From Vicugna vicugna (Eukaryota), in assembly GCA_013265495.1 (NCBI GenBank), contig MU058065.1:8597819-8661818 (forward strand): a stretch of 64,000 nt of DNA, read 5' to 3'. The translations under genes and the position numbers were made by a program. Positions 14,155-40,276 of this stretch are shown piece after piece. Every line of letters starts with the position of its first letter. The stretch's first letter is position 1. The notes under the pieces are model-generated. The model saw nothing but the letters and a program-made list of their open reading frames with translations. It had not been told where the DNA came from and ran no database searches.

Positions 14155-14245
14155 GAGTGGCAAAAACTCAACTATGATATCTACACCCTGCGACAGATTC
14201 GAAGGGAAGTGAGAAGTAGATGGAAACGCATTTTAGAAGATTTAG
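14155..14245 (+). CDS. MREG: Melanoregulin, internal coding exon (third from last)
   Basis: Acceptor ttttcctgcag and donor G|gtgagt, 91 nt. Encodes [30 protein letters not shown], which matches remembered melanoregulin. Confidence 0.95.
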
Positions 14246-15502
14246 GTGAGTCTGAAAGTGATTACGAAATGGTAAAAATAACCAGTTGTGATCATTCCTC
14301 TTCACTTTCTTCAGCCTAGTTTTTATGAAAAGGGTGTCAGTAATGACTAACTAAGGCTACTTACTGTGTACTAATTATTTTCCCAATCCTGTTCTCCCTG
14401 TATCCTCAAGCACAAACATCTGATGTTCCCGTTATCGGCAGCCCCTGTCTTGAGGACGTGTTTTGCCATGTGCTACTCCATCCGTCCTCAGTATCAAGTA
14501 GCACAGGCAGCAGAATCACATGGGCACTGCCATTGAATTTGGGGGCCTTTTGCATTGATTGAATTAGATGGGACTGATTGGCCAATCAGTAGCAGCTTTA
14601 TAAGATAAGGCAGATTGGGAGAAATACTGTTTGTAAGAGAGACAGCAAAATACAGTGTAGACTTTCATAAGGACTACAAGGTAGGGAAAATACCCGTGGT
14701 GTTAGAGTAGACATTGCGTATTGATTTTTCTTAATTCTGCCTGGGCTGTGATAGAATAAACATGGTCTTCACACTGTAAAATGAGCTGGCTTTAATGTTT
14801 AAAATAATGAACATATCAGCTTTGGAGACCTCAGTCCTTCTGCTTTGAAAGAGAACATGACACCTTGGCATCAGAACTTTTCAAAAGAAAGGTACCAAGT
14901 TGCTAGCCCCTGTTGCTTTAGTTGGGATGCAGTGGAATGGGGTGGACCTCTGCCCTCTTTACTTATTCAGTATTATTGTGACTTAATAGTCTCCTTTTTA
15001 ACAATGTAAGTTGCTCCAGGCAGGTTAAATCTGTGAGTCTTCTATACCTTTGGGAAGTAACTTAACTCGCCAACTACATTGCCCCAGGAAGGGAATCTGG
15101 GCTTGGAGAAATAGGGGAGGAAAGTGACCACTTTGCAGATTGGGGTGGGGCAGGAAGGAATTCTGGGGACAGGGAAGGAGATGAAGGGTAGGGAGTGGAA
15201 GGAGGGTTTCCAAACCAAGAAAAGGGGCAGCAAGCAGTCAGTGGGTATCTAAGATTTAACTTGAAGGGAAAAGCTAATGAAGAAAATTTGGTAAGAGGAA
15301 ACCTCAAAAGAATTTTAATTAAAGACTCCTGCCAACCACACCGAGCTGGGAAGCAGCATGTGAAGTGGAGGCTTGGGCTTCTGTTTTCTCGTGCTTGTTC
15401 AGAATTCACCCTTGGGTCCCTTAATCTCCTGCAGGGACCGCACTGCGGGGCTGTCATTTCTTTGTGACTACTTTACATGAAGGTTCAATTTCTTTACCTT
15501 AG

Positions 15503-15666
15503 GTTTTCAAAGGGAAGCAGATTCTTTGTTGTCGGTGACGAAACTCAGCACCATCAGTGATTCTAAAAACACAAGGAAGGCTCGGGAGATGTTGTTGAGA
15601 CTGGCCGAAGAGACCAATATTTTCCCAACCAGCTGGGAGCTCTCAGAGAGATACCTCTTTGTTGTG
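15503..15666 (+). CDS. MREG: Melanoregulin, penultimate coding exon
   Basis: Acceptor tttaccttag and donor gtaagt, 164 nt, in phase with the previous exon. Encodes (G)FQREADSLLSVTKLSTISDSKNTRKAREMLLRLAEETNIFPTSWELSERYLFVV. Confidence 0.96.
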
Positions 15667-16206
15667 GTAAGTGAATACCTTTGTCCGTCTGCCCTGATTT
15701 TGCCTTAAATTTTTGCTTTCCTGTTGGTCCATATACTCATCATTCTGACACCACTAGCTCTGCCACAGTGTGAGGTGTGGCAGGTGAGGCTGGCATCTTC
15801 TGCATTAGTTCCCAGTGGCCGGCACATTGTAATCCCTTGGAGGGCTTTAAAAATTCAGGTTTTTGGATTGCACTCAGACCAGCTGAGACTTGGGTTGTGG
15901 CTCAAGAGTCTATCTGTATTTTTCAGCCAATTTTGCTGTGTAGCCAGCCTTCTGAACCATTTTTTTGTTCAAAGAGATGTAGGAAAGATTGTGTCTATAA
16001 CCAAAGGTTGAAAAATGATTTGAAAAGACTCTTAGACAGCATAAGTGAGGGATTAAGGAGTGTCTCTAAATTTGTTAAGAAAAATGTAATAAATGTTTTA
16101 CTTACTCATCATTTCTAGGGTGGATACTGAGGTTTTAGATTGGTTTTCTCACTGACAGGGCTTGGTTTCTATCTTGAGAACATTTTTATCTTTAACTTTT
16201 TGGCAG

Positions 16207-16341
16207 GACCGTCTCATTGCACTCGATGCTGCGGAAGAGTTCTTTAAAATTGCCAGTCGAACTTACCCCAAGAAGCCTGGGGTCCCATGCCTGGCAGATG
16301 GCGAGAAAGAATTGCACTGCCTTCCGTTTCCAAGTCCCTAA
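16207..16341 (+). CDS. MREG: Melanoregulin, last coding exon
   Basis: Acceptor ttttggcag. Encodes DRLIALDAAEEFFKIASRTYPKKPGVPCLADGEKELHCLPFPSP followed by TAA. Confidence 0.96.
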   Translation, partial: DRLIALDAAEEFFKIASRTYPKKPGVPCLADGEKELHCLPFPSP

Positions 16342-18500
16342 AGGAGAGGCTGCGAGGCAACACTGGAATTCTTCCACTGGAACTCAACAGCCAACCAAAG
16401 TTGGACAAGTGCTAGAGGGCTAGCTAAGGGAAGAAGGATTCTGGCTCCTACAGAAATCTAAGGGTTTGAATGTCTGGTCATCATGAGGACTTGACTCTGT
16501 GAAATGTTCAGGTTACATTGAAACACCCTAGGGACCTTGCATCAGCAAGTTGGTCAGCGGGATATTTCATCATGGGTGATTAGCTTCCAAGAACTCGTTG
16601 CCCCTGTTTTGGTTTTGGTTGTACAATAAGCTCTAAACACTGGTCCTGCTGGGAGAATGGGAAATTCTAGTTAATAAAACAGTAAGATTAATAGAACTAC
16701 CATTGAACCCATATATGGATTACCAATGTTTAAGTAATTGTTACACAATACAGGCTAACACCAAAATAATACCAGGCATCACATGACCTTTCCTTGACTT
16801 GGAAGCACCTACAGAGCCTTGGAGGTGTTTGAGGCCTCATTCTGAGTATCTGTTATGATGACTCAGAAGTTTAGATGTACCCAGTAATAGAAACACCTAG
16901 GAGTGCTGCTCAGAAGTGAGTCCCAAATAGAATGATCCCAAGGAGTACTTCTGCAGCTACATGTAAAAAGCTCTGTCTTCAGTTGTGGCACAAGCATCTT
17001 AATGTCCCAACATTATTGAGATCTGGTTACCTCATTTTTGCATATTGCCCAGCCCTGATCCACAAGCCCTTGATATTTTATCTGGGATGGCACCTGTTTG
17101 ACCTCCACTTTCTTCTCTTCTGTTTAGTCTGTCCCCAACTTATCAGCCGAGAGTGGCACCTGTCCAGGGACCCCCAAGCAGACTTGCAGCTCTATAGGCA
17201 GTGTTGCATTGAAGGTCCTTGCTGGACTTTCTCCCTTTCTGAAGATGATTTTTCAAACTGGAGCAGTTCTGTCAACACAGCTTGTTTCTATGCACAGATT
17301 GAGCCGTCCAGCTTCCAAAGTGACTTGCCACGTAGGCAAGGAGCTTGCCATGAAATCATGGTTCATTTTATTGAAAAGACTTTCAGAGCCTGTAGGATTT
17401 CTCCATAGATTGCTGAGAACAATGGCAATATTTTTACTTTTACAGATTTTGCTCTTCTGACTTCAAGTTAAAAAGTAACTTGTATTTAGTCTGCACAGGG
17501 GATTGTGACTTGAAAATTTTCCTATCCTGACTGGCCCTTTTGGCAGTGAAGACAATGTTTAAGATGTTTGTTAGAGGAGATGCGTGTTCTCCATTTACGA
17601 ATGCATTGCAGACCAATTTAACTGACATGTTTCAGGTAAATTCTTCCTAGTTTAGTAAGTAAACTGAAAGTTTTATTTTTTAAAATAAAAAATATATTTT
17701 TATTTTGTTTTATGTAGTACTTAATCCCTCTCTCATGTTGTTGAAAATTAGCCTGAAGGTATTTTTCCTCACGTCTGTGGGCTCTTGCAAGATAAACATA
17801 CAAACAGTGAAACAAACAATAAATTAAACCAAAAAAAAAAAAACTTGGAAAATCATATTATTTTCATCTTTGTCCTTGGAATTTGTATTTTGTCTTTCTG
17901 CCTTCTTTTGATGTCAAAATAGATGGGATTGTTTGCATCTATGGAGAATAAATTGTAACCATAGTCTTTATTTTTGGTAATGAATAAGGAAGGATAAACT
18001 TGTCTCTCTGATTATAAAAACATGTGGAATTATCCAGGAAATCTTCCTTGCAAGGAATTAAAAGTTTTCTGTGTTTACTTTTCAGTTGAATGTGTGTTTT
18101 ATTTCTGAGAATTAAGAAGGAACAGATATTCTTTCCATAATCCCTTTAAATTAAAGGGTTAAGAAGCTGAAAGACTGAAAGGGCTTAAGGCCCTCCCATC
18201 ATTCTAAAGCCATTCGAGGGGCGGATCTGTGCCCAAGTCCATTGAGTGGTACGTGAGAGAGGCTTAAGGAAGCCTGAAGTGACCACTTCAGAAGTCACAA
18301 GTTACTCGGCAAGACCAGGATGCAAAGGTTCATGCATGTATGCGGGGCGATTTCAGGTGGTAGATGGAAATTTTTATGTTAATAAGTTACTCATTTTAAT
18401 ATGCAGCATGGGGAAAACCTGTAATTAGCAGATCAAACTCCTGATTTCCTATTCCACGGATATTATTGCAGTGAACAATAAAGTATAAATGTTTTCTTAA
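16342..18500 (+). other. MREG: Probable MREG 3' UTR with candidate poly(A) signals
   Basis: Repeat-poor, AT-rich sequence after the stop codon. AATAAA occurs at 16673, ~17683, ~17818, ~17947 and 18477. The true end is inferred only. Confidence 0.55.
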
Positions 18501-20420
18501 AGGGGGTTCCAGGAGACCCAGTGGACTCATGGACCAAAGTGATAAAGAATGCATTGGTGAGAGGTCCCCTGCATCACTGAAAGCTCGGTAGTATCCATGC
18601 AGGCCAGGGGCTATTCCAGAACTGGGCTCATGGAAGCAATGGGGATGGAAGAATAGGGGCCCAGTGGCAGTGCTTCACTGCCAGAAGAAAAGTGGGCACA
18701 ATTATAATGAGTGGCCAGGTCTGAGGGTTACCTGCAGAGAGATTTGGAGATGGTTGATGGAACCTGGCATCCCTAGGGGCAAACTAGATGGGTAGCCAAT
18801 AAGAGTATTGTTCAAACTAGACCATGAAAAGATCTCAAGGATGGACGATCAGGAGATATACAGGGCATAGCCATAGCCATCTTAATAAAAAGCCATGATC
18901 TCCTGCCAAGTTTCCGGACCTTGGCTGTTTCCTAGACCCAGAAACTACTGACTGAAGGGAAGGCTGGATTCCCCAAGGAGGACTTTGAAACATCACTGCA
19001 AGTGTATATGGCAATGCTTCCCCTATTCCTTCTGCAAAAGGACCTATAGTTGTTTACCGGGAGACCATACACTGGGAAAAGGAGTGTACACAAACACCCT
19101 GAGGACATGGGACACAAGGTCCAAGTTGACATTGATACTCAGGGACAAGAATATCATTGGAGTGTGCCATTTAGAGTCAGGGCAAATGGAGTTCAGATCA
19201 TAAATGGAGTCCTCCCCCAGGTCTAATTCACCGGAGGTCCACTGAGTCCATGGATCTACCCAGTGGTCATCTCTCCACTTCCAGAATAAATTATTGGACT
19301 CAATATACTTGGAACTTAGCAGAACCACCATTTGTTTTTTTGGCCTGTGGGTTAAAAAACATCTTAATGAGAAAGCTAAGTGGAAACCTCTCAAAATACT
19401 TCACTCCCCTGGCCAAGATAGTAGACCAAAGTCAATATTGTATTCCAGAAAAACAATAGTGATTAGTATCCTTAAAGACCCAAAGGATGCAGGAGGGTTG
19501 GTCTTGATTAAAATTCTATTTAATTCACTACTCTGGACCTGAAACTAGGTGGATCCTGGAGAACGAAAGTGAATTATTGAAAATTCAACTAAATAGTAGC
19601 CCTAATTGCAGCTGCTGAGCTAGATGTGGGATCTTTGTGAGAATAAATTAACACAGTCTCAGCCGCATGGTATGTGGCAAATGATCTGGCAAATGTGTTC
19701 TCTCCATACCCATCAAAAAGGTAGGTCAGAAAGTGTTAGTATTCACCTGAGATGGACAGCAGTGCATATTTATGGTATTGCTCCAGAGCTATCTAAACTC
19801 TCCTCCCTCTGTTTTAATATAGCCCAAAATGATCTGGACCATCTAGACATTCTACAGAATATCACATTGGTTACTGTGTCAGTGACATTAGCGATGAGTA
19901 TAAATTGGCAAACGCATTAGAGGCCCTGACAAATGACATGAGCTTCAGAGGTTGGGAGATAAATCCTACAGAGTCTCAGGGACCTGCCACTTCAGTGAGG
20001 TTTTCAGGGGTCTGGGTCTGGGGCACACTAAAACATCCCTTCCAAAGGAAAGGTCAAATTATTTCACCCTACATCTCCCACCTCTAAATGGGTGAGCCAG
20101 CAGAATGCTTGGTAGGCAGTCGTCTTCATGCTGTCACCCGGAAATACTGCTCCATCCCATTTAACTGGGTGACATGAAAACCTGCCAGCCACGAGTGAGA
20201 TCCAGGCAGGAAAGGGCTCCAAAGCAGGCCCAAGCTACGGCCAAGCAACTTGACACCTGTATCACAGGACCCTGCAGAATGTTTGGTATTAAAAGTCATG
20301 GTGATAAGAAGAAATGCCACGTGAAATGGGTGAAAAACTCAACAGGAGAATGACAACACAGACCCCAGGGTTCTGGAGCAAGGCCATGCCATTTGCAAGG
20401 GATAAATACACATTACTTGA
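18500..20420 (+). mobile_element. Decayed ERVL internal region (gag-pro-RT remnants)
   Basis: Degenerate ERVL motifs with many stops and frameshifts: KNALVRGPxASLK (~18545), HWEK...DTRSKLTLI protease-like (~19070-19140), and KDAG...GSWRTKVNY*KFN*IVALIAAAELDVGSL*E*IN...WYVANDLANVFSPYP of RT (~19470-19710). Confidence 0.85.
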
Positions 20421-20509
20421 AAAACTGTTCATCATGAGTTGGGTTTTTGTCAGATTCAGGAACGTGTAAGATCAAATTCTCGCATCAATATAATTTTTCC
20501 TGTTATTTT

Positions 20510-20835
20510 TCAATATAAACTATTAATTTTAGAACAGCTTTAGATTTGCAGAAAAGTTGCAGAGATAGTACAGAGTTACGGTTTCCCCCGTTATTAATAT
20601 CTTACCTTAAGGTACGTTTGTCACATCTAATGAACCAATATTGAGACCTTATTATTAACTAAAGTCCAGAGATTATTCAGATACCTTAGGTTGTAACCTA
20701 GGGTCTTTTTCTGTTGCAGGATCCCATGCAGGACATCTAGTCATCAAGTTCTCTTAGGTTCCTCTTGACTATGGTAACTTCTCAGACTTTCTTTGCTTTT
20801 GATGACCTTGACAGTTGTGAGGAGCACTGTTCGGG
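20510..20835 (-). mobile_element. Old L1M 3' fragment nested in the ERVL
   Basis: ttaattttagaacagctttagatttgcagaaaagttgcagagatagtacagag...gatgaccttgacagt, typical of antisense L1MB/MC 3' ends. Confidence 0.6.
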
Positions 20836-21026
20836 AATAGAGAAGAGAGAGAGGATAAGTACTAGTGTGGCCTTGAGGCCAGCTGCAGCAGTGGGGCTCT
20901 AAGTTGTCCAGTTAGCCTTCTTCGTGTAGTTTTCCTCAAGGAAAGAAATGCACCAGGCTGCAGGAGGAGACTTTCCCGGGACTTGCCATAAAAAGCAAGT
21001 GGATTGGACCATCACATGGGTGGACT

Positions 21027-21416
21027 GTTGCTGATGATGTGGGCCACTGCTCCGGTCTGCCCCTTTTGGGTCTGAAATATACATTCCCTCCACTGTTGGC
21101 AGTATTGGTGTCTGAGATCTTAGTCAAGACTGTGTAGGAATTGCCATCAACAGATGAGAGTTGTCAATGTCCACTGTCACCCCCCCCCGTTGGCATCCTG
21201 CATCTACTGACTAGTCAGTTGGTACAAGGGTAGGTGGTGCTATCCCAGCTCTAAAGCTCCCCACTAGATTGGCTGAGGCCTTTGTTATGACTACATCATA
21301 GAAAAAATATTCCCAATCCTGCCTTTCCTCTCTCCTCCGTAGGTATTTGCTAATGAACTTGTTGCTCGCCAATCTCCATTCCAGAATCTTTTCCCCCGGG
21401 GAACCCAATCGTGACA
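21027..21416 (+). mobile_element. ERVL 3' LTR (LTR16/33-like)
   Basis: Preceded by the PPT-like gggtggac. Starts TG, has a degenerate poly(A) signal (aatgaa) and ends ggggaacccaatcgtgaca. Confidence 0.6.
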
Positions 21417-22989
21417 GTACCTGAGTCAACAATACAGTACCCCCAAGACTGCATTTGTAGCTGACACGTTCACAGTGCCCCTACACTAGTTTTAGTGTAA
21501 CTAGGCCAGAGCATTTATCTATTGAAATACATATGATTTCATTATGAGCCATTAAGTAACAACTTTATCTTTGGTATTAGAGCATTATTTTTAAAATGTT
21601 ATCTTAAGTAGGTGTTATTTGTAAATTCATTTAACATAAATGGTTAAATCATTTTAAAAGACCATCATACAAGTGACTTTTCTTTAGCTAAGACATTAGA
21701 GTCAGTAACTTTGGGAAGAGGACCTCACTGACAGCCGTAGAAACTAGTTTATGTGACTACTCTCCAATGATCAGAGACGGATCATGGCACGAAACTTGGA
21801 TTCTTTCCCATTGGATTAATGAATTTATCCATTCCCTCAGATCATGTTCTAATACTAATATCAAAAGAAGTCTGTTTAAATTTGATTAAGTTGCATTGAA
21901 AGGAGTATACTCATAATTTCTAAATCACTACCACGTATAGAGTGAACACGGCCAGCTGCTTTGAATTTTCTTTTACAATAAGTGTTACTATTAGCTTCCA
22001 GAGTATTAGTCCACACTCTTGTTTTGACAAACTACAAATGGATATATGGCATTCTAAATTTTAACTCAACATATGGATTTAGAACACTGGGCTGCAGAGA
22101 ACTGAGTTAGGGAACTAAGTCTTAACCTGATTCTCATCCTTTGATCATTTAGTAACTAAATGGGATTTACCTGATTTTGCTATTCATCCATATTCTAAGT
22201 ATTTAGTGAGACTAAATTTAGAAAGAATAATTTTTTGCATACATGTGTATGTATGTGTATTTCTATATTACATATTATAAAGAACAAAACTAAAATCATG
22301 AGATTCATAATAGTTAAATAAAGCACCGGCCTATAGATCATTACTTTTTCAAAAGCCAACAGCTGTAGTTTTTAGGTAACAATTTACTTAAAAAATTCTT
22401 CAGCATTAGTAGCATGAAAGGTGTAAGCTAATTTTATCATATGTCCTAGAGAAGTGTAGTTAGCATTCGAAGTATCCTAATCAGGAATCCACTTTCCAAG
22501 ATGATTAAACAACAATCTTTATCAAAATTTACACCGGTAAGTTCATTAAGTTGCATAAAGGGGGGTAGGAATGAGTTTCCATTAGCGAAATGAGTGGTAG
22601 TCAAGATAAATGCTTGGCTAGAACAACTGGCCGCCATCAACTTTGCAAGAAGGTGTTAAGAATCTCTTATACCCAGCAGTGTTGAAGGATTAGAGCATCC
22701 TTTGTCCTTTGTCTACCTTCTTCTCAGACCTGAGGCCAAGTTGTCTGATTTGGTTATCAGAATATTGTTGTGTCTACATAAGAATAACACTTTCAATCAA
22801 GTTTCTTTCAAACTTTTATTTCAATAGTGGGTCCCGAGAAACGAAAGTGGAGGCTTCTCTGGGATTACAGGAAGCAAATGAGTAATTCCTGGTTAATAAG
22901 TGTTGTATGAAGAATTTGGGATAAGATTTGCTTCCATTGTAACATTAGGTTGCAAGAGGATGAGGGAGGCTATACATGGCTTTCCCTTT

Positions 22990-23255
22990 CCATTCTTGAG
23001 GCCAGCCTCAAGCAGTGGGATCTAATCGCTTGGAGAGGTATCCCATAGGCTGTTGGGTAGGACCCAGCCATTGGGTGAGGACCTCCAGGGCTATTCCTCC
23101 TCTCTCGTGAACATAGAACTGGAAGGGCCTTGTGGGACCTGTAAGCCCGAAGGCCGGGGATCTTACTAGGAGATTTTCTCATTCTTCCATTGCTTCCTGT
23201 TGGGAAGGATCCCACTGGAGACGTCTTCCCAATCATCTACCCCTAAAGCCCCTTC
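22990..23255 (-). mobile_element. Inverted gammaretroviral pol fragment (RT connection region)
   Basis: Minus-strand reading LQWDPSQQEAMEE*ENLLVRSPAFGLTGPTRPFQFYVHERGGIALEVLTQWLGPTQQPMGYLSKRLDPTA*GWP resembles the MLV-type PALGLPDLTKPF...[29 protein letters not shown]. Confidence 0.85.
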
Positions 23256-23269
23256 TGGGAAGCTGGTCC

Positions 23270-26189
23270 CCATGGATCTGGCGTTTATAGTATTGAACAA
23301 CAGAGACAGGGCTAAAGAGGCAAAAAGGATTCAGGGACAACAGCAAAAGGTGCAATCCTTAGCAGCAGCCTTTATCTCTGCACCACCTCAGAGCTACCCT
23401 CCACCAAGACCCATGGTGAGGACAGGATCCAGGATGCCTGCATCAGAGCCACTGTCTTGCCAAAAAGGGACCTGTTTTAAGTACAGCCAGGAGGGCCACT
23501 GGAAAAACAAATGCCCCAATTTTGGGAAAAGTCCACCAGGACCCTGCCCTATGTGCAAACAGAAAGGCCACTGGGAGCGGGACTGCCCCCAGTCCCGAAG
23601 TGGGCTTGGGGCTCCCAAACCAATGATGGCTGAGATGACTAAAGGCTGCTGGGGCCTGGGACCCTCCCTGGCTCCCACAGGACACCGGGTCATTTCTCCA
23701 GCAGAGCCTTGGCGACTCCTTGTGGCAGGTAGAAAAGTTGTCTTCTTATTAGACAAGGGAGCCACCTACGTGTGCTGACTGATTTCCTTGGACCCTTGTC
23801 CTCCCAATCCAGTGTACTAACGGGGGTCAACAGAAGGCCCCCAACAAGGTGCTTACTAAAAATTTACTTTTACACATGAGTTTTGGCTGGTGGCTGAGTG
23901 CCCCATCCCCTCACTGGGAAGGGACCTACTTGCTCAGTAAATCCCAATAATTAAAATAATCCAATTCAAAGACCCTTACGTGAAAGACATGCACCCCAAA
24001 AAATGTCTACTCTTGGCTTTGGGAGCCTGCCTCAATCCCAAGCCAGAAGAGGTCTCCCTTCCACTCCATATTGATTCTCAAGTCAACCCTGCTGTCTGGG
24101 AACCTGAGGTCCCTGGCAGAGCTACTATTGTCAGGTTATCATCAAAATGGGACCACGTGAGGCCACAGGCAGGCCTCTTCAGATCAGAGGCCAAACCAAG
24201 AGCTTTAATTAAAAAAAACTTCTCAAACCCAGGAAGGCTCCTCAAAAGTGTTCATAAATAGATGGCCAAACGGGAGGCCATTGGTTGGACTAAACTGACC
24301 ATAGCTGATATTTGGAGCCTAATAAAATTTTTTTAGAAAAGTCTCCCCTAAGCTAAATGAGAAAAAACAAAACTATCTTTGTTTTACAAATCTAGTCTTT
24401 ACAGGACCAGAGGTGTGTCTCCAGAAAGGATACAAAGCCCACCAATCCTTTGACCACTCCCAAAACCTCCCCTACGTATTTATCTTAATAGACAAGTATT
24501 AAAAAAAGACACTTTTTTCTGGCCTTTGAAAAACAAAATCTCTCTATGAGACTCTAGGGCTTCCTATGCCTTTGAGATACAAATATTCTACCTTGTCTTC
24601 TCTGGGAATTCTGATCTCACCATCTTTTTAAAATGCAAATTTAAAAAAAAAAAGGTGGGGAAAGAAGTAATTTGGAACTTAATTTGCTAAGGAGAAGTAA
24701 AAATTTTATCTCTTTTTCATAAATATTAGCAAAAAGCCTTAGCCATGTAAGTGGGCAACTTTGATTTGTTCTATCTGCCAAAAACCCCAGTTTAAATCCA
24801 ACTTCTTTGGTAGCCAATGGGCTTTACTTTGTTCTATCTGATTTATGACTAAAATTTTAAAATGAAAACTATAAGGTGTTGTATGCCACAGATGTATGGT
24901 ATTGGCACAATTAAATGGTAAAAGAGCTCTTTAATTGGCTGAAAGGAAATTAAGTACTTCTATAAATACTCAAAACATAGAGAAAACTGGCCAAAATAAA
25001 TTTCAGGTTCACGTTATCTAAAAAGGATTCAGTACTGGTACTGGTATTGAAGCTAGCTTAAGCTTGCTAGTTTAATTAATTCAAACATGTCTTTAGAGGC
25101 ATAAGTGTTAAGTATAATAGTTCGGCTGTGCCCAGGCTTAGTAGAGGGCAAGCAAAACTTTATTATATCTGTTACAAAGCTGTCAACAAAAAAAGTAACT
25201 CAGTGTAAAAAAAACTTTCAAAAAGTAAACAAAACATGGGATTTGGGGTAAACTCTATAGGAGTTTTCTTTTGAAAGTATCCACCTAAAATTCTCTCTCC
25301 AAATTTTGGTACTTAAAAGTTAAAAAGTTCACTGACTATCTGTGTCATTTATAAAATATTAAAACATTAATTGCTGGGCAGGCAGATCTAAGTTTATCTA
25401 CCTTTGCCTTAGAAAAAAAACAAAACAAAACATAAGTTTCTAGTCAGGAAATGGTGATATGACAACCAATTCACAGTTGCTTGCTTCTTGGTTTTTGCCA
25501 GAGATTTAAGGTTTTGGAGGGTTAAAATGATAATACATGTAATTACAGCTCCTAAAATAAGTATTTCAGTAAACAGTGGGAAAGTAAGATGTATGCTTTT
25601 AGTAAGTATTTCGTAAACAAACAAACAAACAAACAAAAGCTAAAAAAAAAGGGTTTCATACATAATCAGAATTTTAAATATCTAACAAATTCTGAAAGTT
25701 CTTTGTGGCCCCAGCTAACTTTAAGATGCTTTAAAAAAAAACCTGAGACATCTCACATATTAAATTAACTAGGATTATTTAATATGTAAAGTTAAATATA
25801 ATCAGTCATAATTCTCATAATTACAAACAAATCTATCAGTTACAGATGTTTAGCCATGCCTTATAAGTCTTTTTGTTGTTACAGACTGTCGAGTTGTTAC
25901 AAAGGTGCTTCATCTTTAAAAACATTCATCAGAAGTCAATGGAAACAGTGGATTTCAACAGTCCCAGTCAAATGATGGCTATTGGAAGATTCCAGCTCAT
26001 ACCCTCAGCCCTCTGGACACAAAAACAAAAGGCTTCCCTGCTCTGGGGGCCCCTAGATTAGGCATTCAGAGATTTCTTACTCCCTGCTAGGCCCCTGTTC
26101 AAGCCTGGCCTGTTAGCAACTTCAGAAGAAGGACCATCGCCCCTCTACAATTCCATAACATTATGGGAGTAAAATCTCTGAGGGGGCGA
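23270..26189 (+). mobile_element. Gamma-like (ERV1) internal region: gag C-terminus/NC, protease remnant, deleted pol, AT-rich internal sequence
   Basis: MDLAFIVLNNRDRA (end of capsid), a degenerate knuckle CFKYSQEGHWKNKC, an intact knuckle CPMCKQKGHWERDC, the protease motif FLLDKGATY, and QVNPAVWEPEVPGRA at the RT start. A purine tract lies at ~26180. Confidence 0.85.
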
Positions 26190-26649
26190 TGAGACAGGAA
26201 GGGGGCAGGGCACAGCCATTCAGGGGATTACACGGCAATTAACGCTAGAATGGCTAAAGATTCAACCCCCAGGAGGACTTGAGGCTCAAAATGGTGGGAG
26301 ATTTGACTTCTAGGAGACCGTGAGCTTCATTATACGCCCACTGTAACACATTAGCATGGTGAATAACATGCCCACAGGCACCCATGGCAGTCCCAAGGCT
26401 AGCCACAAAAGGTCAAAGAGCGGGAAAAGGCTAATTTCCTGGGAATCCCAGCCCCTTCTTCAGCCTAGACTGGTCCTTCGACTTATTAAGATATAAAGCT
26501 ACCGAGCCCATAAAAATTGGCCTTTGGAGACGGCCTGCACTCTATGGAATGTGTGCCCACTTTTATTCTAAACTGAGCTTCCAAACCCCACATCTTGTGG
26601 CCTTTCTCTTGCCTCCTGATGTATCTCTAAATAAATCTACCTTGACTCA
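26190..26649 (+). mobile_element. ERV1 3' LTR (U3-R only) followed by an A-rich tail
   Basis: Starts TGAGACAGG after the PPT gagggggcga. TATAAA at ~26491, AATAAA at ~26630, then ...ctca and A-rich sequence at 26650-26680. Confidence 0.75.
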
Positions 26650-26734
26650 AACAAAAAAACCCCCCAAAAACAAAAAAAGATGATTTGTCCCTCATATGAG
26701 CAGAAGACTAAGTTAGACAAGCCTGGGGGTGGAT

Positions 26735-27010
26735 ATACACCTACATAATATACATATTTTATATGTATATATTTCATTTTATAGGTATATATATGTATAT
26801 ACTCATATATATAATACACATATATATACACACATCCATACAGATATGTGTATATATATGTAATATATACCCATAGACATATGTATTGATACACACATAT
26901 ATAATATACATGTTATACATGTACATATATTATATATGCATAAATATACAGATATATAATAAACATTACATATATACATATCCATACAGAGACTTGTGTA
27001 TTTACATGCA
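26735..27010. repeat. Degenerate (TA)n/(CA)n low-complexity repeat
   Basis: Long run of tatata/tacata/cacata units. Confidence 0.9.
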
Positions 27011-27788
27011 CCCATAAAATAGGCACATGATACGGCTGTACATCCCTAGCTAGACCTGTGTATGGATGAGCACCCCTTTAATAGCCACATGATATGGATG
27101 CACTTCACCTCCACCCACAGGCCTGTGTTTGGAGGGGTACCCGTTCTCACAGACACATGATAAGGGTGCACTTCATCTCCATCCCATCTTGTAAACACAT
27201 GACATGGGGTGCGTCTCCACCCTCAGGCCTGGGGATGGAGGGGTACCTCGTCTTGGCATTATTAAAGGTTCTGAGAAGGCCTGCAGTACATTCATTTACT
27301 CTTGTATCAATCTTAGTTGACCTTAGTATCCCTTTATCCACTAACACTGATTAGCTTCCTGTGGACTATTTTGGGAAAGACTGGTCCAGCATATCTCAGG
27401 TCTCTCCCAGCACTTACACTGATAACACGTAGGAAGAGCAACGTAGTCTTTTGACACGGCTCTGGAGATCAAGGGAGCAAATTTTAATGTCCCGGAGTTG
27501 ACAAGGCACCTGTTTATATTAATTGGCCCCTTGAAGATCAATATGATTCCCTTGTTCCTATAAAAGCCTTCACTCAGGGAAAGTGGTAATGACCATCACA
27601 GAATCTTGGTGGCCACCTACAGTACAATTAGAACTGGTCAAGAAGGGCCAGCTACCCTCAACATAGTTTAGTTTTCCTTTCCAGTGTAACGTGCTTTTCT
27701 CCACAGCAAATGCTTTTGCCACTGTTCCCTAGAACAGTTCTGCTGCCTTTAACAGGGTCGCTTCCCCACTTCCTTGTCCAGAATGAAG

Positions 27789-27930
27789 TCAGTGTGCAGG
27801 CAGGCTGTCAGGAGTCCTCGGGTTAAAGAGCTGCTCTTCCAGGAAGGCACCTCCGAAGCCATACTGTTCTTCATGCAGACTGATTTCTTCCGGTGACAAG
27901 TGGCTTCCTCCAAGAACAAAGTCTGCAAAC
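27789..27930 (-). CDS. NEMP2: Nuclear envelope integral membrane protein 2, exon 9 (last coding exon)
   Basis: 142 nt encoding (K)[46 protein letters not shown] then TGA. AG acceptor at 27931-27932. Confidence 0.94.
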
Positions 27931-28642
27931 CTAGGTTTTTTTGTTTTAAATAGTTAACGTTATCACAGAAAGGTTTATTTTGAAGATAACATGTTCCCTT
28001 GATACTTATCCCCTTAAATTAAACGTGACTTTGCATCAGTGGAGGATGGCATTTACACAGCGGGCGTGAAAACAGGAATGGCTTATGTATCCTCCTCGAG
28101 ATGCTCAGGGAAAGGCAGACTCAGAAGCATCGGTGCTGCCAAAAAGACCGCTCCTGTTTTCTAATCCCGTCTCTCTCCCTTTCTTAATAAACATATTATT
28201 TATTCATTATTTGGTGTCAACACTTCCCCTTCAGCCTCCAATCTGAGGGCACTGTCGTTGGGAGAAAGCTATGAAGAAGGGAAAGCACTAAGGAAAAGAT
28301 GTCGGGGCGGAGATGTCTTTCTTGGTCAACTTTACAAATGACTGTCCGCACCCTCAGAATGAGAAACAAGTGACACATCCCATTCCACCTCTTCCCTTCT
28401 CCTATGAGCTGTCTGGATGGCCTGCCCTATAAAACACATCGGGTCAACACCGATTCTGACACCGGTAGGTTGTACAGTGCAAGTCGGAGCACGGAGGGAA
28501 AAGAACATCCGACAGCTTCCACATCGTCTGTCATGCAGGGAAGTCGGCTGTTTCTAGCTTGAGGCATCTGAACCAAAGCGCTGCATTATTTTCACAATAA
28601 ATCCAACGCAAGCTGTAGTCTGGGCAGCTGAGTGGGGCTTAC

Positions 28643-28819
28643 TTTTTGGGCGCCTGGAGCCTGGAGACAGCCAGCCAGGACGGAAAGCCGGGGCTGCGGC
28701 AGGCCTGGCGCAGCTCCTCCAGGGCGCGGGTGGTCGCAGCATCCGCTTGTTCCCTGTATTCGTCTTCAGTGAGGTACTTAACCACCGGCTTTTTCGATGT
28801 AAACCATGTCTTCACTTTC
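28643..28819 (-). CDS. NEMP2: NEMP2 exon 8
   Basis: 177 nt, ttttag / gtaagc. Encodes (R)KVKTWFTSKKPVVKYLTEDEYREQADAATTRALEELRQACRSPGFPSWLAVSRLQAPK, the conserved NEMP C-terminal region. Confidence 0.94.
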
Positions 28820-29350
28820 CTAAAACACGCAGCATTTAATTGCTAGATTCCATATTTGGTTACTCAATTCAATCCTTAAGATTTATAAAAGTATATTTCT
28901 TAGTGACAGTAATAACTCTTAACTTCCTCTACATCATACTATGCTGCATTATTGCTATCATGACTGGGGTTTATAGAACTTGCTGTTTGGGCCTAATAAT
29001 ACCTTTCTCCTCCTCCTGGACCATCCTAAATAATGTTCTAAGGCATCTGAGGATCAATTTCTGATAAAGATATTAATTGTATTTTTCTTCCTCGGTGATT
29101 TCAAATCACACAAACAGACAATTAAAGGTCTGGCTTCTTTATGCTTGCCTGGATTTCCTTGGGCACTAAAGAAGCAAGCCTTTGAGATGTCCTTTTACGG
29201 AGACCCAGAAGCATCATTTGCCACTTAGTCTCAACACAGAAGACAGAAACATTTGTGGGACAGTGCCTCCACCTAGTGGTGGTGATTCTCACTAATCCTA
29301 GAGAGGGACCAACACTGGACAAAAAGTTGTGTATTAAAAACAATTCTCGT

Positions 29351-30100: not shown

Positions 30101-32115
30101 GCTAATCACAAGAGTAGCTACCAAATATTATTAAAATACATTCAAACAGCTCTTTGCAAACTAGAATGTACTATAGAAATCAAAGTATTATTTCTCTGGT
30201 TTATTATTTAACCTGTAAGTTCCTCTTTTATCCCTCAATTCTTCACATAATTATTCACTAGCAAAATGAAAAGTTGAAGTTACAATAATATTTTGATTAT
30301 TCATGTTAACAATACATAGCAAGCGCATAAGGGGATCGTCATGCAGGTGACAGAACACACTCTGCTCCTGGCAGGGCAGTGATGTTTGAAGAGAAAGTGG
30401 AAGGCATTCTCTCTTGGGTTCCTTAGGGCACAAACCTGGCAAAGGACCAGAGGCCTGGAGGATGTGGAGTGGCCAGCCTCCTCCTGGCAGAGGGACCTCT
30501 TGACACAGGGCAGAGAGAAGCAGTCAGCATCAGTGCCTCTGACCCTGCTGCCTTTCAGCCTTGCCACCAGCCTCTGCGTAGGAGCCCTGGTCTCATGCTG
30601 GTGCATGTTTACCCCTGTGACATCACCACATATGCAGCCACCAATTACCAGTCACCGAAGTCTCCTTCTTCACAGCCAAGTCTACCACGTAAATACTTAT
30701 TAACTCCTTCTTCTGGCCTTGAATCTCACTCCTCCAGGCCCCCATCACCTCCTGCCTGGACCACTGTGATGTCTGATGCCTGGCCTCCTGCCCCAGAACC
30801 TCCCCTTACATCTTCCCTCTGTGCCAGAAGACAGATGGGCCCCATCCCACTGCCCGAAGAGTGTTCATGGTCTCTGCTTTGATTTTTGCTTGTTGGATGT
30901 ATTTTTATCTTCAGATTAGTTGCCAACATTAAAAAATCATAAAAATTTACATTCTAACCCATATTCTTAGCTTTTTTAGAAAACCAGAAGGTGTGCAAGG
31001 CTGGCCCATATTCCCACATGGCAACAATCGGCTCAAGTTGAACGGTAACTGACCCCCTTTCGACAGGGCTACATCGTACAACTTCCCACATCCTCACGCT
31101 CGCCCCACCACCTCACCTCTGCTCAGAATCACTCACTCAGTACATGTGAGGGCCCTGAGCATTTGAATTTGTAACCACTGTGCAGGCAGCAGTCAGAGAG
31201 CACTGACTAATGTGCATTAACTGTCAGCTGCCTCCACTGTGCCCAGGATCAGGTCAGATTCCTCAGCACAGCCTGCAATACCTCCACGACCTGGCCGCCG
31301 CCCCCTTGCTCACCTGCCTCCTGATGGTACCAGGCTGGGCTCTCTCCCTGTCAGGAAAGCCCCTCCTATATTTATTCATCTGGCTGTTTTGATTCATTAA
31401 GATTTAGCCCAGTATTATCTCCTCCAGGAACTTTCCTGAACTTTTTCAATGTCACAGTTCCTGGGTGGGCCTACTGAACACTTCAAGGCTATAGAAGTGT
31501 ACACCTACGTCCAAGGACCCCTCACAGGTGGGGACCACCTCTGTCATCTGCGCACCTGACACAAACGCAGGTGCTGAGACTCCGTGACTGAGGACGTGAT
31601 GAAGCCGTGAGAAGAAAAGTTCCCTCATCTTTTTTTCTGTACTTTTAAAAGACTGAACCCTTTTCTTAAAACCTAAGAGAAAGAAAGTCCTCAACATAAA
31701 TAATACCTTTTAACCATTTGTAATCGATTTCTGTTCCCTAACTCTTATCTCAGAAGCACAACAAATACCTCTAAAGCAGTTGTGGGCTCCAAAGAAAGAA
31801 AATGTAGAAAGAAAGCAGAAGTTTTAGGCAACCGAGAGCCCAAGTGATTTTGCCACTGATTTTTGTGAATTCTAGGTGAGCTGTAATTACCCAGCAATTG
31901 GTGGTGCACCTCTGGGAGATTAATGAAGACGAGCACTGGAGGTGGGGTCAGATGCTTAAATTCTCTACCCTCCTCCTCTCTGAGGGAGCATTCCAGATGA
32001 AATGGAGTCAACTCTGAGATTAAATGTGACACGTCCAAAAGATTCCCCCAAAGAATGAATAAAACCAGAGCCCAAAATGTCGCATTTACGAGGGGTAAAA
32101 AAAGATATGCAGTAC

Positions 32116-32338
32116 CTCATGTAGCCGAACGCTTTCAGTGGGTAGCGCAGGTTCCCGGACGACAGGAGAAGGACCATGACCGTACAGGCGAAGCGAGGTG
32201 CGGTGACACCAGCATAGACCAGGAGCAGGGCCAGGAGCCGCAGAGTCCACATCAGGAGATTTCTGCTCCTCTTCTCAACCAAGGGCCCGTGCTTGTAACA
32301 AACAGTAAAGCTGAGACACCCAACTATCAAGATATAGC
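32116..32338 (-). CDS. NEMP2: NEMP2 exon 7
   Basis: 223 nt, ttgcag / gtactg. Encodes (G)YILIVGCLSFTVCYKHGPLVEKRSRNLLMWTLRLLALLLVYAGVTAPRFACTVMVLLLSSGNLRYPLKAFGYM, containing hydrophobic TM segments. Confidence 0.94.
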
Positions 32339-33964
32339 CTGCAAGAGAAGAATGTAAAAGAATATAAATCTGAACTTGAGAAGTTATGTGAAAAACCTGG
32401 CAGAGCCTTGACTTAGAGCTAAGAACATATCAGAAAACCTTCCTTTTTGCTTTCTCTTTCCAATGAAGCAAAGTTGAAAAAATGCATTTAGGGCTAGTTA
32501 TTCCTTCCATGTGAGATGCTAGGCTGACTTTTGTAATAATTAAGGATGTATAATAATAAATTAATATAATACATTATGTATAAATATACCTGTTTTCTAG
32601 CCCCGAGTCCTACAGGGCAAATATTATCACGGTAGCTCTGGTCAGGAAGAAGCCTCGGTGTATGTCACAGTCTGCTATAAAACCTATTTTTAATTTTTAC
32701 TTTCTACTCACAAAAGGAAAATCTAATTTTACAATGAGGGATCAGGCTGTCACTCTTGTAATCCACTGCTCAGTCACAGCATTACTAACAGAGGGACAAT
32801 GAGATATTCTGTGGCGCCTCATGTTGTGATCCAAGGTGAAGTGCAAATCGCCTCTTACACATTCCATCAAAAGTGTTTCATTTGTATCTAATGCAAGCCT
32901 CAAGATCTAATTTCCAGCTTATAGGAAATGGGGTGGGGGGGAGGGGAGGAAACAAGTTTCATCATATCACAAAGGTGTAATCAGAAAAATCCGGAAAGTA
33001 GAACATTGTATAGGACAACTACCTTGGTCTCTGTGATGGGGGAAAAAAAAAAAGAACTGTTACAGATTAAAAGATTTATAGGACACAACAGGCATAAAAT
33101 GTGATTCTGGACTATATGCTACCTTGTACAAACCAACAATTAAGGATGTTTAGGAAATTTAATGGCCTGGATAAGACACGATTTTATGTAATTATTAATT
33201 TTTTAAGATTTAATAGTTATTTAACTATAGAGGAAATGCTTTTGCTTTTTAGAGATGCTTAGTGAAGTACTGAGGGAAACATACCATGAGATCAATAATT
33301 TACTTGGAAAATACCTTGGCATAAAAAGAATAATGGACTAAAAGCATAAAACCTTCAAGTGAAAAAAAAATCGATTGCTTTTGAGTGGGTGGATTTATGT
33401 GAAAGATTTGGCACTAAAAGGTTAGGAGAAAACTGATTCCCCCATTGTCCATTATTCCACAATTAAAACAAACACTTTCAAAAAGTTTTTTTTTAACAAC
33501 ATGAAACAAGAACAACAAGTGGTTTCTTAACAGCCTCTCTGTTTCTGAAAAGTCAAGTTTTCATTAGTCATTTATATTTAGGATTTCCACCTTTCATACT
33601 AAATACACTAAGAAAAAGAAGAGCCACATTTTAGAGAAATTTTTTCATTATAATTTCGGTGTGGTTAGAGCTTAACCACAATTTCAAAGCATATATAGTC
33701 AAAAGGGCAAATAGCAAATTTTTTTGCCCTTTTGATCATTAGTATAGAAAACTAAGAAGTATGTCATGGAGAAATAGTCTAACACGAGATGTAATGAACT
33801 GAAATCACCAACCACGGAAATAAGATAAAATACTATTTTTAGCACTTTTCTCCTTAGTTCAAAATGAAAATTTGGATGGAGAGAAACGTATGTCGAAAGA
33901 AGGCCTCTAGCTGTACTTTTCAGCTGTATTGACAGTAAACTGTATTTTTTTAAACTTTACCTAC

Positions 33965-34079
33965 CTAATATATATATTCTGTTTTCATACCACAGCCACT
34001 TCAGATCTTCCATCAGTTGACACAAAACATAAACTGAAGCAAACCAACAACCAACCATTAGAGCCCAAAAGGTGCTATA
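33965..34079 (-). CDS. NEMP2: NEMP2 exon 6
   Basis: 115 nt, cacacag / gtaggt. Encodes YSTFWALMVGCWFASVYVLCQLMEDLKWLWYENRIYIL. Confidence 0.95.
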
Positions 34080-34224
34080 CTGTGTGTGGAAGAAAATAAA
34101 TGACACAGTTTTTGGTTCATTCACTCTCATAAACATAGAAGTAAACAAATAAACCCTCTGAATCAGAAACTTCTGTATGAAACTGCACTGAAGTCAATTC
34201 AAGACACTCGTCTAGGTCTGATTA

Positions 34225-34894: not shown

Positions 34895-34988
34895 CTTAGG
34901 AATGAATCTTTTCACCAGTAGCAGGACAAAGACTAATGTCATTAGAATACCTAGCACAGTCCCCGAAGAGTAATAGAAAATAGGGCTT
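34895..34988 (-). CDS. NEMP2: NEMP2 exon 5
   Basis: 94 nt, ttgacag / gtaggt. Encodes (Q)SPIFYYSSGTVLGILMTLVFVLLLVKRFIPK. Confidence 0.95.
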
Positions 34989-36087
34989 CTGTCAAGACAA
35001 GCAGATAAAAGAAATTTAAATGCCAAGTTGCACTCTCAGTATGAAAAACATGTTTAACGTGGTGACAGTAGCCATAAAGAATACTAAGAAGAAAAACTCA
35101 GATGGCAGCTTTAATTATATCCTATACTCTTAAAAAAAAAAAGAAATCTCTACTTTAAATTTATAGTAAATAGCTTGCCACTAATTCAAAACAGTGTCTG
35201 AGTTATCTTCTATGCTTAGAATCTGATCCAATAATACTTACTGGAGCACCTACCACTTGTCTGAGAGCTTTACATGCACTCAAACAGCCCTGTGAATCAG
35301 TTATCCACGTCTACATTTTACACGGGAGGAAACTAAGGCACCAAGAAGTTAAAGACCTTCTCCAAGTCAGTATCTGCTGCCTGGAGGATTCAGGCTTGCA
35401 GCCTAGCTCCTCTAAGTCCAAGCTTTACTCTTCACACTATGTAGACAACAACCAATTTATTAAGACCATGGAGGATATTAAACACCCTTGATTACACTAC
35501 AAGAAAAAGCTCAAAAACGAACAATGTCCAGAATAGCAAGCTAAGATGTAAAATATTACTGGAAAGAAATTCCTTTTTCATGAGAGAAGCTGTAAGACAC
35601 ACAGTATCAGGATAACATGTTTATCCAGAGTCGGACAGTGGTTAAAGTCAACTTTCTGTATCAGAGCCACAAACCGAGGAGGCAGCTCAAATGTAAGAGA
35701 GGAAGGCATCTGGTATCAGAAAACCTGAGTATAAACTTCAGCCCTGGCCAGAACTAGTCATGTGATGACGGATTGGTTTTCTCACCTATGAAATGAGAAC
35801 AGTCACACAGAGCTCACATAATCATTAAGAGAATCAATTCAAATAATATAACACATATTAATAAATAATACAAAATAATGCATGTGAAAGCACCCTGAAC
35901 CATTACAGATTATACTATACAAACAACAGTTACTGGGTTTAAAACCTTTCAAACACTATCTTCAGACTTACTGTTTGGAAAACCTAAAGCAAGAACTACA
36001 AACTAATGTGGAAATATTGAGCAGAGGGTCAAAAATGTCCTACTGTTTTCGATTCACAAAAATAAGAAAGTAAAAATGAATACTTAC

Positions 36088-36160
36088 TGACTCAAGGTCT
36101 TCGCATAAAAGAAGAGGAACATGCCTGCCACAAACACAAGGAAGAGTTTGAAATCCACAA
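36088..36160 (-). CDS. NEMP2: NEMP2 exon 4
   Basis: 73 nt, ctccag / gtaagt. Encodes (I)VDFKLFLVFVAGMFLFFYAKTLS. Confidence 0.95.
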
Positions 36161-36284
36161 CTGGAGTGAAAAAGACACGGGCACATAAGAAAGATTTTGT
36201 GTCAATGTAGCATTAATGAAAGAAAAGTCGATTTACTGAAATGTCACTGCAGAAAAACTGAATCCAGAAAATCAATGGACTTAC

Positions 36285-36516
36285 TGTTTCGAGTCACGCT
36301 CATTGTATAGGTAAATATCTTCCTGGCAGGAGTCACAGAGAAGCACACGGTCTCCCCATATGGATTGATGACTATGGTTATATCATTAGACTCTTTTGGT
36401 GTCCAAAACTTATGAATCATACATTTGATAATAGACAGAATGGTTTCTGGATACTGGCAATTATGTCTTTCTGTGATATAGACAATACTGAGCAGGCCTG
36501 AACTAGTAATTTTCAC
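36285..36516 (-). CDS. NEMP2: NEMP2 exon 3
   Basis: 232 nt, ttgtag / gtaagt. Encodes VKITSSGLLSIVYITERHNCQYPETILSIIKCMIHKFWTPKESNDITIVINPYGETVCFSVTPARKIFTYTMSVTRN. Confidence 0.95.
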
Positions 36517-39196: not shown

Positions 39197-39576
39197 AAGT
39201 GCTAGGCTATGGAGAATGACTACTATCTTGGCCATACCTGGGATCAGAAGTAACCAGAATTTCTATATGGAAGGGTTTGAGATAGCAATTATTTTGGAAA
39301 GCAGGCGAGAACATGTTGTCTTGAGCTGTGTCTAAACAGCAAGCATACTGCACTCAGTGCATTTATTTGGAAAGGTTGGAGAAGGGCTTATGAAGTGTGT
39401 GGAGAGTTAATGTCCCTCCCACCCAGCCCTCCCCCTGAACCGCTGTGTGTGATCGCCCGGTCAGCCTCCACACTGATGCATAGCTCTTATCAAACAAAAG
39501 CTGCTTTCTGCTCTTGAAATAGTACATCTTAACTCTCTGTTCTCAAGACATAATTTAAACATAGGCTCTTTCTTAC

Positions 39577-39692
39577 CTGCACAGTTGACCATATATACTT
39601 CCATTTCATTTGGGAATTTTGATTGTAGCAGTAACAGTTTGACTCAAAAGTTTTAATTAAATCCATTTCCTTCAAAGCTTTACACCTTGGAA
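39577..39692 (-). CDS. NEMP2: NEMP2 exon 2
   Basis: 116 nt, tttttcag / gtaaga. Encodes (V)PRCKALKEMDLIKTFESNCYCYNQNSQMKWKYIWSTVQ. Confidence 0.95.
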
Positions 39693-40276
39693 CTGAAAAA
39701 TGAAAAAGGGAATATATTTCCTAATATGTAATTGCTCAGAATCTTATCTTCTTTCTCCTTTGTTCACGGGGATAATGATAGCTGTTCTTACATTCTATGA
39801 CCAGTAAAATTCTTCTGCATGGTAATTATAGCTCTTCAGTCTTTCCAACCTAGCAGGAGACAAGACAAAAAAACTACAGCCCAGTATCAATACTCTTAGG
39901 ATGTATGGAGGAGCTGTAGGAGCACAGAGCACAGGCACTTCAGTCCTGGAGCAGAGGCAAGAACTGAGGGCAGCTCCCAGGAAACAGGAAACACAAGTGA
40001 TGCACTGAAGGACAGTCAGGGGCACTGAGACAGAGTCAGGGGGTAGGGGTGGCAAGTGCGTACAGAACTTGGGAGATGAGGGAACTCGTGGAAGTGGATC
40101 AGCCATTTATGAGGATGGAGTGTAGGGAATACACGAGGACACTGCAACACGTGCAGCTAGAGAGGTTACTACTACGCTAAGGAACGTGAAGAACTTCATG
40201 CTGAAAGCAGAGCACTGAAGGATTACAGGTAAGTCTAAAGGCTCAGAAGGAAACTGCTGACACTCAAAGGGGTTTA

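Follow-up and report, generated by a model that had tools for sequence, protein, structure and literature searches.

A camelid chromosome 5 inversion of about 19.4 Mb, with one break inside an ERV1-like element between NEMP2 and MFSD6

In a 64,000-nucleotide stretch of the vicugna (Vicugna vicugna) genome (hereafter the window; G000:C1347:8597819-8661818, the same coordinates as on MU058065.1, with 0 N bases), the genes MREG (+) and NEMP2 (-) are convergent, and their stop codons lie 11,448 bp apart (the TAA of MREG ends at 16341, the TGA of NEMP2 at 27789). An earlier note on this DNA had put the distance at about 11.4 kb, a figure that the measurement confirms with exons verified by Pfam and protein matches, and had proposed a single inversion with breaks 3' of NEMP2 and 3' of MREG, which the gene orders at both junctions support. 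An inversion of about 19.4 Mb is almost certainly real and common to the camelids examined (alpaca, dromedary, and Bactrian camel). Very probably it arose on chromosome 5 in the common ancestor of living camelids, when one break cut an older ERV1-like insertion (ERV = endogenous retrovirus) and the ends were rejoined by end joining. The starting points are direct observations, namely the gene order at both junctions, the split element, the collinearity inside the block, and the occurrence of the arrangement in alpaca, dromedary and Bactrian camel.

If the NEMP2...FN1 block of the human order is turned round once, the gene orders on two contigs of the vicugna assembly (G000) result, and both reciprocal junctions exist with the predicted orientations, MREG(+)|NEMP2(-) and MFSD6(+)|FN1(+) ATIC(-). 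On C1347, which carries the window, the order is TMEM169(-) at 8.492 Mb, MREG(+), NEMP2(-), NAB1(+) at 8.736 Mb, and GLS(+) at 8.93-8.95 Mb. On C7665, HIBCH(-) at 1.70-1.755 Mb is followed by MFSD6(+) with its stop at 1893893, FN1(+) at 2.299-2.359 Mb, and ATIC(-) at 2.384 Mb. MFSD6 thus has FN1 (405 kb away) and ATIC on one side and HIBCH on the other, and the junction between the MFSD6 3' end and the FN1 side that the note had foretold is present. The large MFSD6 exon is 99% identical to that of dromedary and differs at 2 of 443 residues from alpaca proteins and at 4 of 443 from Camelus proteins (6 of 7 proteins anchored). The stretch C7665:1885001-2285000, read in 40 pieces, has two gaps (297 and 161 N), the nearer one 154 kb from the break. 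As had been claimed, no MFSD6 exon lies in the MREG-NEMP2 interval: a tblastn search of the window with full-length camel MFSD6 returned a sole match, a chance one (E 9.5) at 36 kb, outside the interval. A search of G000 for the MREG family gave three matches, all at one locus, so that the MREG of the window is not a partial duplicate, and this alternative explanation fails. The NEMP search gave two loci, the window and C2665, the latter taken as NEMP1.

The features that define the break are the following.

21450..22990, no strand: near-unique host DNA, MREG-side flank of the break (two weak non-self matches, at 22457-22619)
22991..22999 (G000:C1347:8620809-8620817), no strand: inversion junction, partner C7665:1904656/7 (paralog alignments begin at 22999, in one copy at 22991)
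22999..27258, +: 3' piece of the dead ERV1-like element that the break split (best paralogs 79-88% identical)
Inner parts of the 3' piece: 22999-23270, inverted pol fragment; 23271-24200, gag zinc knuckle and protease-like remnant; then a non-coding internal part and a terminal repeat
26190..27258, +: likely 3' long terminal repeat (LTR) region with putative limits (purine tract then TG at 26190; AATAAA near 26626; A-rich run)
26748-26981, +: degenerate (TA)n within the 3' LTR region, with 62-106-bp units to about 27258 (Tandem Repeats Finder; repeat family D4; paralogs carry the same units)
C7665:1903516-1904656, beside MFSD6: 5' piece of the split ERV1-like element (consecutive with the window piece in 12 paralogs)

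Evidence that the two pieces belong to one element comes from their paralogs. The window piece has at least 69 non-self matches in G000, and searches with window 22400-26700 (best 40 of 3561 candidates) and with C7665:1903150-1904750 (best 40 of 205) gave the same paralogous loci, the two queries matching consecutive stretches. When both pieces were aligned separately to 22 fetched loci (11 per piece), all 11 loci found with the MFSD6-side piece continued in the same orientation into the window piece, with 0-17 bases between the pieces in ten and 45 in the eleventh, where the first match ends early. Six of the 11 window-piece loci carry the 5' piece directly upstream (five already counted and one new, giving 12 distinct loci). 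Fifteen bases separate the pieces in six of the seven copies shown in which the 5' match reaches its last base. As the 5' piece ends at C7665:1904656 and the 3' piece begins at window 22999, or at 22991 against one paralog that is shorter there, the position of the ERV break is fixed to about 10 bases by these alignments, and the paralog comparison gives a loss of 0-15 bases with no duplication seen. Since a retroviral insertion arrives as one piece, the halves must once have been contiguous between MFSD6 and NEMP2, and the camelid gene order is derived. Being older than the inversion and cut by it, the ERV records the break and did not template it.

The class label ERV1 is presumptive, taken from the detected domains and from general features of such elements. 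The window piece matches PF17919 (E 2e-4, below its cut-off) and PF00098 (E 7e-5), and the inverted pol fragment, in which the cut falls, gives a weak match of reverse transcriptase (RT)/RNase-H type and is followed by the gag zinc knuckle. A pair of LTRs with a target-site duplication was not found around the two pieces; the 5' LTR is absent, and all the terminal repeat ahead of the 5' piece is some 50 bases long (its alignment scores 46, where shuffled sequences reach at most 44). Several paralogs are 5'-short like the MFSD6-side piece. The inverted pol fragment stands ahead of gag in some family copies only (window 22999-23270; L018:9297-9656, L018 being a stretch of C7665; paralogs L038-L060). 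Family members end in (TA)n and 60-110-bp repeat units, and several copies have one or two of these units at the 5' end instead of an LTR. The orientation switch at about 23270 inside the ERV was considered as the break and rejected; the same switch occurs in paralogs and is a family trait. The statement of the earlier note that the interval is filled with ERV remnants holds for the multi-copy ERV1-like element at 22999-27258 and not for 21450-22990, which is near-unique; as to the remainder, 20503-20840 is an old high-copy repeat, and 18450-20450 is presumably of ERVL type, with no Pfam match.

Camelid ortholog positions were taken from the supplement of PMC6598621 (rows of Table_6; rows of Table_5 together with parts 114-115 of 157); this and the other papers are cited by PMC number, each for the parts of its text and tables covered here. 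In alpaca (VicPac3.1), chromosome 5 carries MREG at 18.496-18.549(+), NEMP2 at 18.560-18.582(-), NAB1 at 18.657(+), and GLS at 18.747(+) Mb, and then ATIC at 37.443(+), FN1 at 37.483-37.550(-), MFSD6 at 37.956-38.007(-), INPP1, HIBCH, and MSTN at 38.269 Mb (PMC6598621). Both junctions hence lie on one alpaca chromosome 5 scaffold, the whole of which the ortholog table labels 5q36, with an MREG-NEMP2 gap of 11,461 bp and an FN1-MFSD6 gap of 406.6 kb; projected from the stops, the breaks fall near 18.556 and 37.945 Mb, 19.39 Mb apart. In dromedary and Bactrian camel alike, a single scaffold carries MREG and NAB1 at a distance of 111 kb, and in the latter species MFSD6 and FN1 share a strand, 402 kb from each other (PMC6598621). 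Dromedary NEMP2 and MREG accessions are consecutive or near-consecutive in two annotations (XP_064341215/6; KAB1278497/9) and far from MFSD6. The comparison of independent assemblies that had been proposed thus gives the same order in alpaca and in both Old World camel annotations.

Outgroups place these genes differently. In cattle, FN1(-) at 103.88-103.95 Mb and MREG(-) at 104.49-104.56 Mb are 542 kb apart on one strand, and NAB1 (5.57-5.60 Mb) is near MFSD6 (5.75-5.81 Mb) (PMC6598621); NAB1, NEMP2, MFSD6, INPP1, HIBCH, and MSTN are also listed together in this species (PMC8908906). On horse chromosome 18, MSTN, MFSD6, NEMP2, NAB1, GLS, and STAT1 lie within 1.9 Mb (PMC9526059), and in human the NAB1 locus is tied to MFSD6 and NEMP2 by promoter contacts (PMC10953390). 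In the rows compared with cattle, the genes listed at 79.9-103.95 Mb run forward and the MREG side is reversed, the block interior being collinear except for one strand mismatch. The mismatch concerns an in-block gene (Table_5 row g38582, PMC6598621) whose strand is opposite in cattle while the three camelids agree, and is either a small local inversion or an annotation difference. In cattle, an independent break separates NAB1 from GLS/STAT1 (BTA2 5.4-5.6 Mb and 79.9 Mb); it lies 0.1-0.3 Mb from that of the camelids, and horse has neither; breakpoint reuse around NEMP2-NAB1 is possible.

A misassembly caused by repeats could be suspected from a junction that lies inside a multi-copy element and from the placement of the two junctions on different G000 contigs (C1347 and C7665). 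It is nonetheless hardly credible, as both junctions are gap-free and cut one element at complementary points, and they recur in the independent alpaca assembly and, wholly or partly, in two camel annotations. Moreover, the reciprocal junction is bridged by contigs of 2,686-2,690 bases from runs X1, X5, and X9 (three of four runs; two studies, three organism labels), which reach 98 bases into the ERV and 83 into the host DNA and show 0, 0, and 1 differences; run X15, presumably of RNA, has no cover there and is evidence neither way. A comparison of a dromedary Hi-C assembly with alpaca also names inversions on chromosomes 9, 16, 30, and 35 and, in the part covered, none on 5 (PMC6618069). An ancestral camelid order, with the rearrangement in the other mammals, or an origin by several events is extremely unlikely. 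The nearby break that cattle have of their own lends it something, but the split of a once-single retroviral insertion marks the camelid state as derived, cattle and horse hold MFSD6 together with NEMP2 and NAB1 (as the human contact map groups them), cattle keep FN1 beside MREG, and the near-complete collinearity of the block speaks against several events. The possibility, named in the note, that outgroups share the MREG-NEMP2 order is answered by the same comparison.

As for the repair route, end joining without a shared repeat is very likely. Window 16.3-27.9 kb and C7665:1885001-2085000 share no sequence at E 1e-5, and the only repeat common to both junction regions is SINE-like (SINE = short interspersed nuclear element) at 29.3-29.5 kb, outside the interval. 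The left host flank of the window break has two weak non-self matches, at least 370 bases away; the host flank right of the C7665 break matches only itself in G000; no homologous inverted repeats spanning both breaks and no repeat spanning the MREG-side break were found, the non-ERV flanks being near-unique or unique. With the second break in near-unique DNA that shares no repeat, repeat-mediated recombination is unlikely and end joining is favoured. Non-allelic homologous recombination (NAHR) between two inverted copies of an ERV or another repeat, one beyond NEMP2 and one beyond MREG, would account for ERV sequence at both current junctions, and ERV1/ERV2 elements are associated with ruminant breakpoint regions (PMC11628655). 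It should, however, leave a whole hybrid copy with overlap at each junction, whereas the pieces are non-overlapping and lack about 15 bases between them, and each junction borders on near-unique or unique DNA on its other side; NAHR is thus already largely refuted by the evidence and very unlikely. Somewhat less remote, yet still unlikely, is that the joins came about by template switching during replication, or from a staggered break that used microhomology, instead of by blunt end joining. One paralog also aligns to the 8 bases left of 22999, so that any position in 22991-22999 may be the window junction, and a few bases of similarity are possible, but no duplicated or templated segment is common to the two junctions and the C7665 junction shows no matching stretch.

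Several points weigh against the inversion, its polarity, or end joining as argued here. Five of the 11 window-piece loci lack the 5' piece and begin at 23223 or later. Bridging by contigs applies to the reciprocal junction, the window junction resting on independent assemblies, and three contigs (runs X5 and X9, two of the four) end loosely just at the reciprocal break and continue into ERV sequence; of 15 bases compared with the window piece, 3 are different, and the contigs are therefore read as paralogs. MFSD6 and FN1 are on different dromedary scaffolds, so that the reciprocal junction is seen in alpaca and Bactrian camel, and NEMP2 is absent from the four-species table, where NAB1 served as stand-in (PMC6598621). 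The outgroup comparison consists of cattle, horse, and a human contact map, pig and whale being left out. The MREG-side break, about 6.6 kb past the MREG stop, is placed by subtraction only, the figures for loss and microhomology are those of the ERV break alone, and short homology could have decayed over some 20 million years.

In the proposed history, an ERV1-like element would first have inserted about 0.5 kb past the NEMP2 stop, between NEMP2 and MFSD6, as the positions of the pieces suggest. One break would then have fallen inside the ERV, as the paralogs show, and the other about 6.6 kb past the MREG stop, in the MREG-FN1 interval, as its flanks indicate; the host DNA at 21450-22990 would accordingly have run on towards FN1 before the inversion. 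The NEMP2-NAB1-GLS...ATIC-FN1 block would have been inverted and rejoined, by a route deduced from the junctions; no duplication is seen, and the loss at the ERV break, read from paralogs, does not exceed about 15 bases. Since the order is shared among camelids, it would have been fixed before the Old/New World camelid split.

The age of the ERV gives an upper limit, as the inversion would have followed its insertion and preceded the split of the tribes. The ERV pieces and their paralogs differ by Kimura two-parameter (K2P) distances of 0.087-0.145 (16 comparisons), and the paralogs among themselves by a median of 0.115 (45 pairs). At a rate of 2.2e-9 per site per year, the divergence of the ERV corresponds to about 20-33 million years (Myr), and the Old and New World camelid tribes split about 16-17 Myr ago. 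A rate of 5e-9 would give 9-15 Myr, younger than the tribe split that the inversion predates, so that this date is not relied on. The faster rate is that of PMC8605555; camelids are dated to about 20 Myr and the camel-cattle split to 64.2 Myr in PMC6371769. As the 5' LTR is absent, LTR-LTR dating is impossible.

No coding exon is broken by the inversion, and the four flanking genes are whole. The upstream desert of FN1 stays almost complete, since the second break lies only about 6.6 kb past the MREG stop. From the NEMP2 stop to the start of the ERV there are 530 bp, and the 3' untranslated region (UTR) of NEMP2, which is several kb long in human, was probably shortened. In view of the human length, a stretch of unique DNA beside MFSD6 (C7665:1901880-1903500, equal to L018:6880-8500), which lies between an L1 and the ERV 5' piece and has an ATTAAA near its left end on the - strand, may be the putative stranded distal NEMP2 3' UTR. 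A NEMP2 retrocopy that keeps the old 3' UTR was sought in G000, and the query matched itself only. Between the MFSD6 poly(A) signals and the break, a 3.7-kb L1 remnant (L018:3170-6870) contains two 3'-end segments in tandem.

Any effect of the inversion would, speculatively, be regulatory, the block now being separated from MFSD6-INPP1-HIBCH-MSTN. The promoters of MFSD6 and NEMP2 are contacted by the NAB1 risk locus in human T cells and monocytes, and in the latter HIBCH/INPP1 is contacted as well (PMC10953390); all of these contacts except that of NEMP2 would span the camelid break. It is doubtful that this undescribed, family-wide 19-Mb inversion also rewired a regulatory domain, with the NEMP2 3' UTR cut and its distal part stranded beside MFSD6, enhancers of the NAB1 region parted from MFSD6/INPP1/HIBCH, the 400-kb upstream desert of FN1 brought to about 330 kb from myostatin, and a fragile site reused 0.1-0.3 Mb from the cattle break.

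Inversions between human and chimpanzee that are mediated by Alu or L1 elements arise by NAHR between inverted repeats, and resemble the present event in that their junctions hold a transposable element; in those cases, recombination joins two homologous copies, whereas here one copy was bisected and the second break had no homologous partner. Lineage-specific evolutionary breakpoint regions of cetartiodactyls (Farre et al. 2019, PMC6442394; Arias-Sarda et al. 2023, PMC11628655) are similar in combining a fixed large rearrangement, intergenic breaks, and a lineage-restricted ERV1-type element. In those studies, the lineage to cattle was traced with camel as comparison genome, the first at 300-kb resolution, whereas the present event belongs to the camelid branch, has one break placed to about 10 bases, and involves an element that was cut and not recombined. 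The ruminant inversion of the major histocompatibility complex (MHC) class II region (Childers et al. 2006, cited in PMC6598621) is likewise old, multi-megabase, fixed in an artiodactyl clade, and mapped at its breakpoints, but it splits a gene cluster and is not found in camelids, while the camelid chromosome 5 inversion breaks no gene.

No prior description of this inversion and no paper naming both MREG and NEMP2 were found in the literature searched, subscription papers (e.g., Balmus 2007, Avila 2014) and most supplements being outside that search. A term search of the available parts of PMC6371769, PMC7288448, PMC6598621, and PMC6618069 found no chromosome 5 inversion, and Table S3 of PMC6442394 gives chromosomes without coordinates. 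The camelid gene order is already latent in the 2019 supplement (tables of PMC6598621), and large fixed rearrangements as such are known; new is a base-resolved camelid inversion with one ERV split between its junctions. In the literature, camelid karyotypes are called stable, and the camel genome is used for comparison in work on ancestral artiodactyl chromosomes (PMC6371769, PMC11628655). A fixed 19-Mb inversion within chromosome 5 would escape chromosome painting, and anyone who arranges camelid scaffolds along the cattle or human genome may take it for an assembly error. The resolution of old breakpoints is usually no better than many kb; a bisected retroelement gives position, direction, and an age bracket from one genome, and further old breaks might be mapped by looking for repeat pieces that are consecutive in their family but lie at distant sites. 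The case also shows that recombination is not necessarily driven by an ERV found at a breakpoint. Myostatin is about 330 kb from one of the breaks, a point of importance when quantitative trait locus (QTL) intervals are transferred from cattle or horse to camelids.

The remaining features of the two genes and of the interval are as follows.

14155..14245, +: MREG internal coding exon (AG/GT ends; Pfam PF15812, E 7e-12)
15503..15666, +: MREG penultimate coding exon (AG/GT ends; PF15812; 100% to dromedary melanoregulin over the 55-aa exon)
16207..16341, +: MREG last coding exon, TAA at 16339-16341 (canonical splice ends; MREG Pfam and protein matches)
16342..18480, +: likely MREG 3' UTR and downstream DNA (AATAAA at 16673, 17684, 17818, 17947, and 18477 by motif scan; putative transcript end)
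18450..20450, +: decayed, old stretch on the MREG side of the break (presumed ERVL-type protease/RT likeness)
20503..20840, no strand: old high-copy repeat (69-77% identity to 39 non-self places among the matches listed)
27259..27788, -: proximal NEMP2 3' UTR, 530 bp up to the ERV (candidate poly(A) signal ATTAAA at 27488 by motif scan of the sequence)
27789..27930, -: NEMP2 last coding exon, TGA at 27791-27789 (96-98% to the camelid NEMP2 C-termini of alpaca and dromedary)
28642-28821, 32085-32405, 33963-34091, 34895-35020, 36087-36516, 39571-39699, -: further NEMP2 coding exons (tblastn limits)

For 18450-20450, there are no Pfam matches in the three + frames and no paralog among the 40 candidates scored, and its ERVL-type likeness is presumptive. 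NEMP2 exon 1 is likely located in a GC-rich island at 48-49 kb (GC 0.66 at 48001-49000). At window 2814-2955, an exon-like stretch matches, in two frames, the N-terminal end of isoform X2 of dromedary MREG, and is a predicted alternative first exon of MREG that appears frameshifted in this genome.

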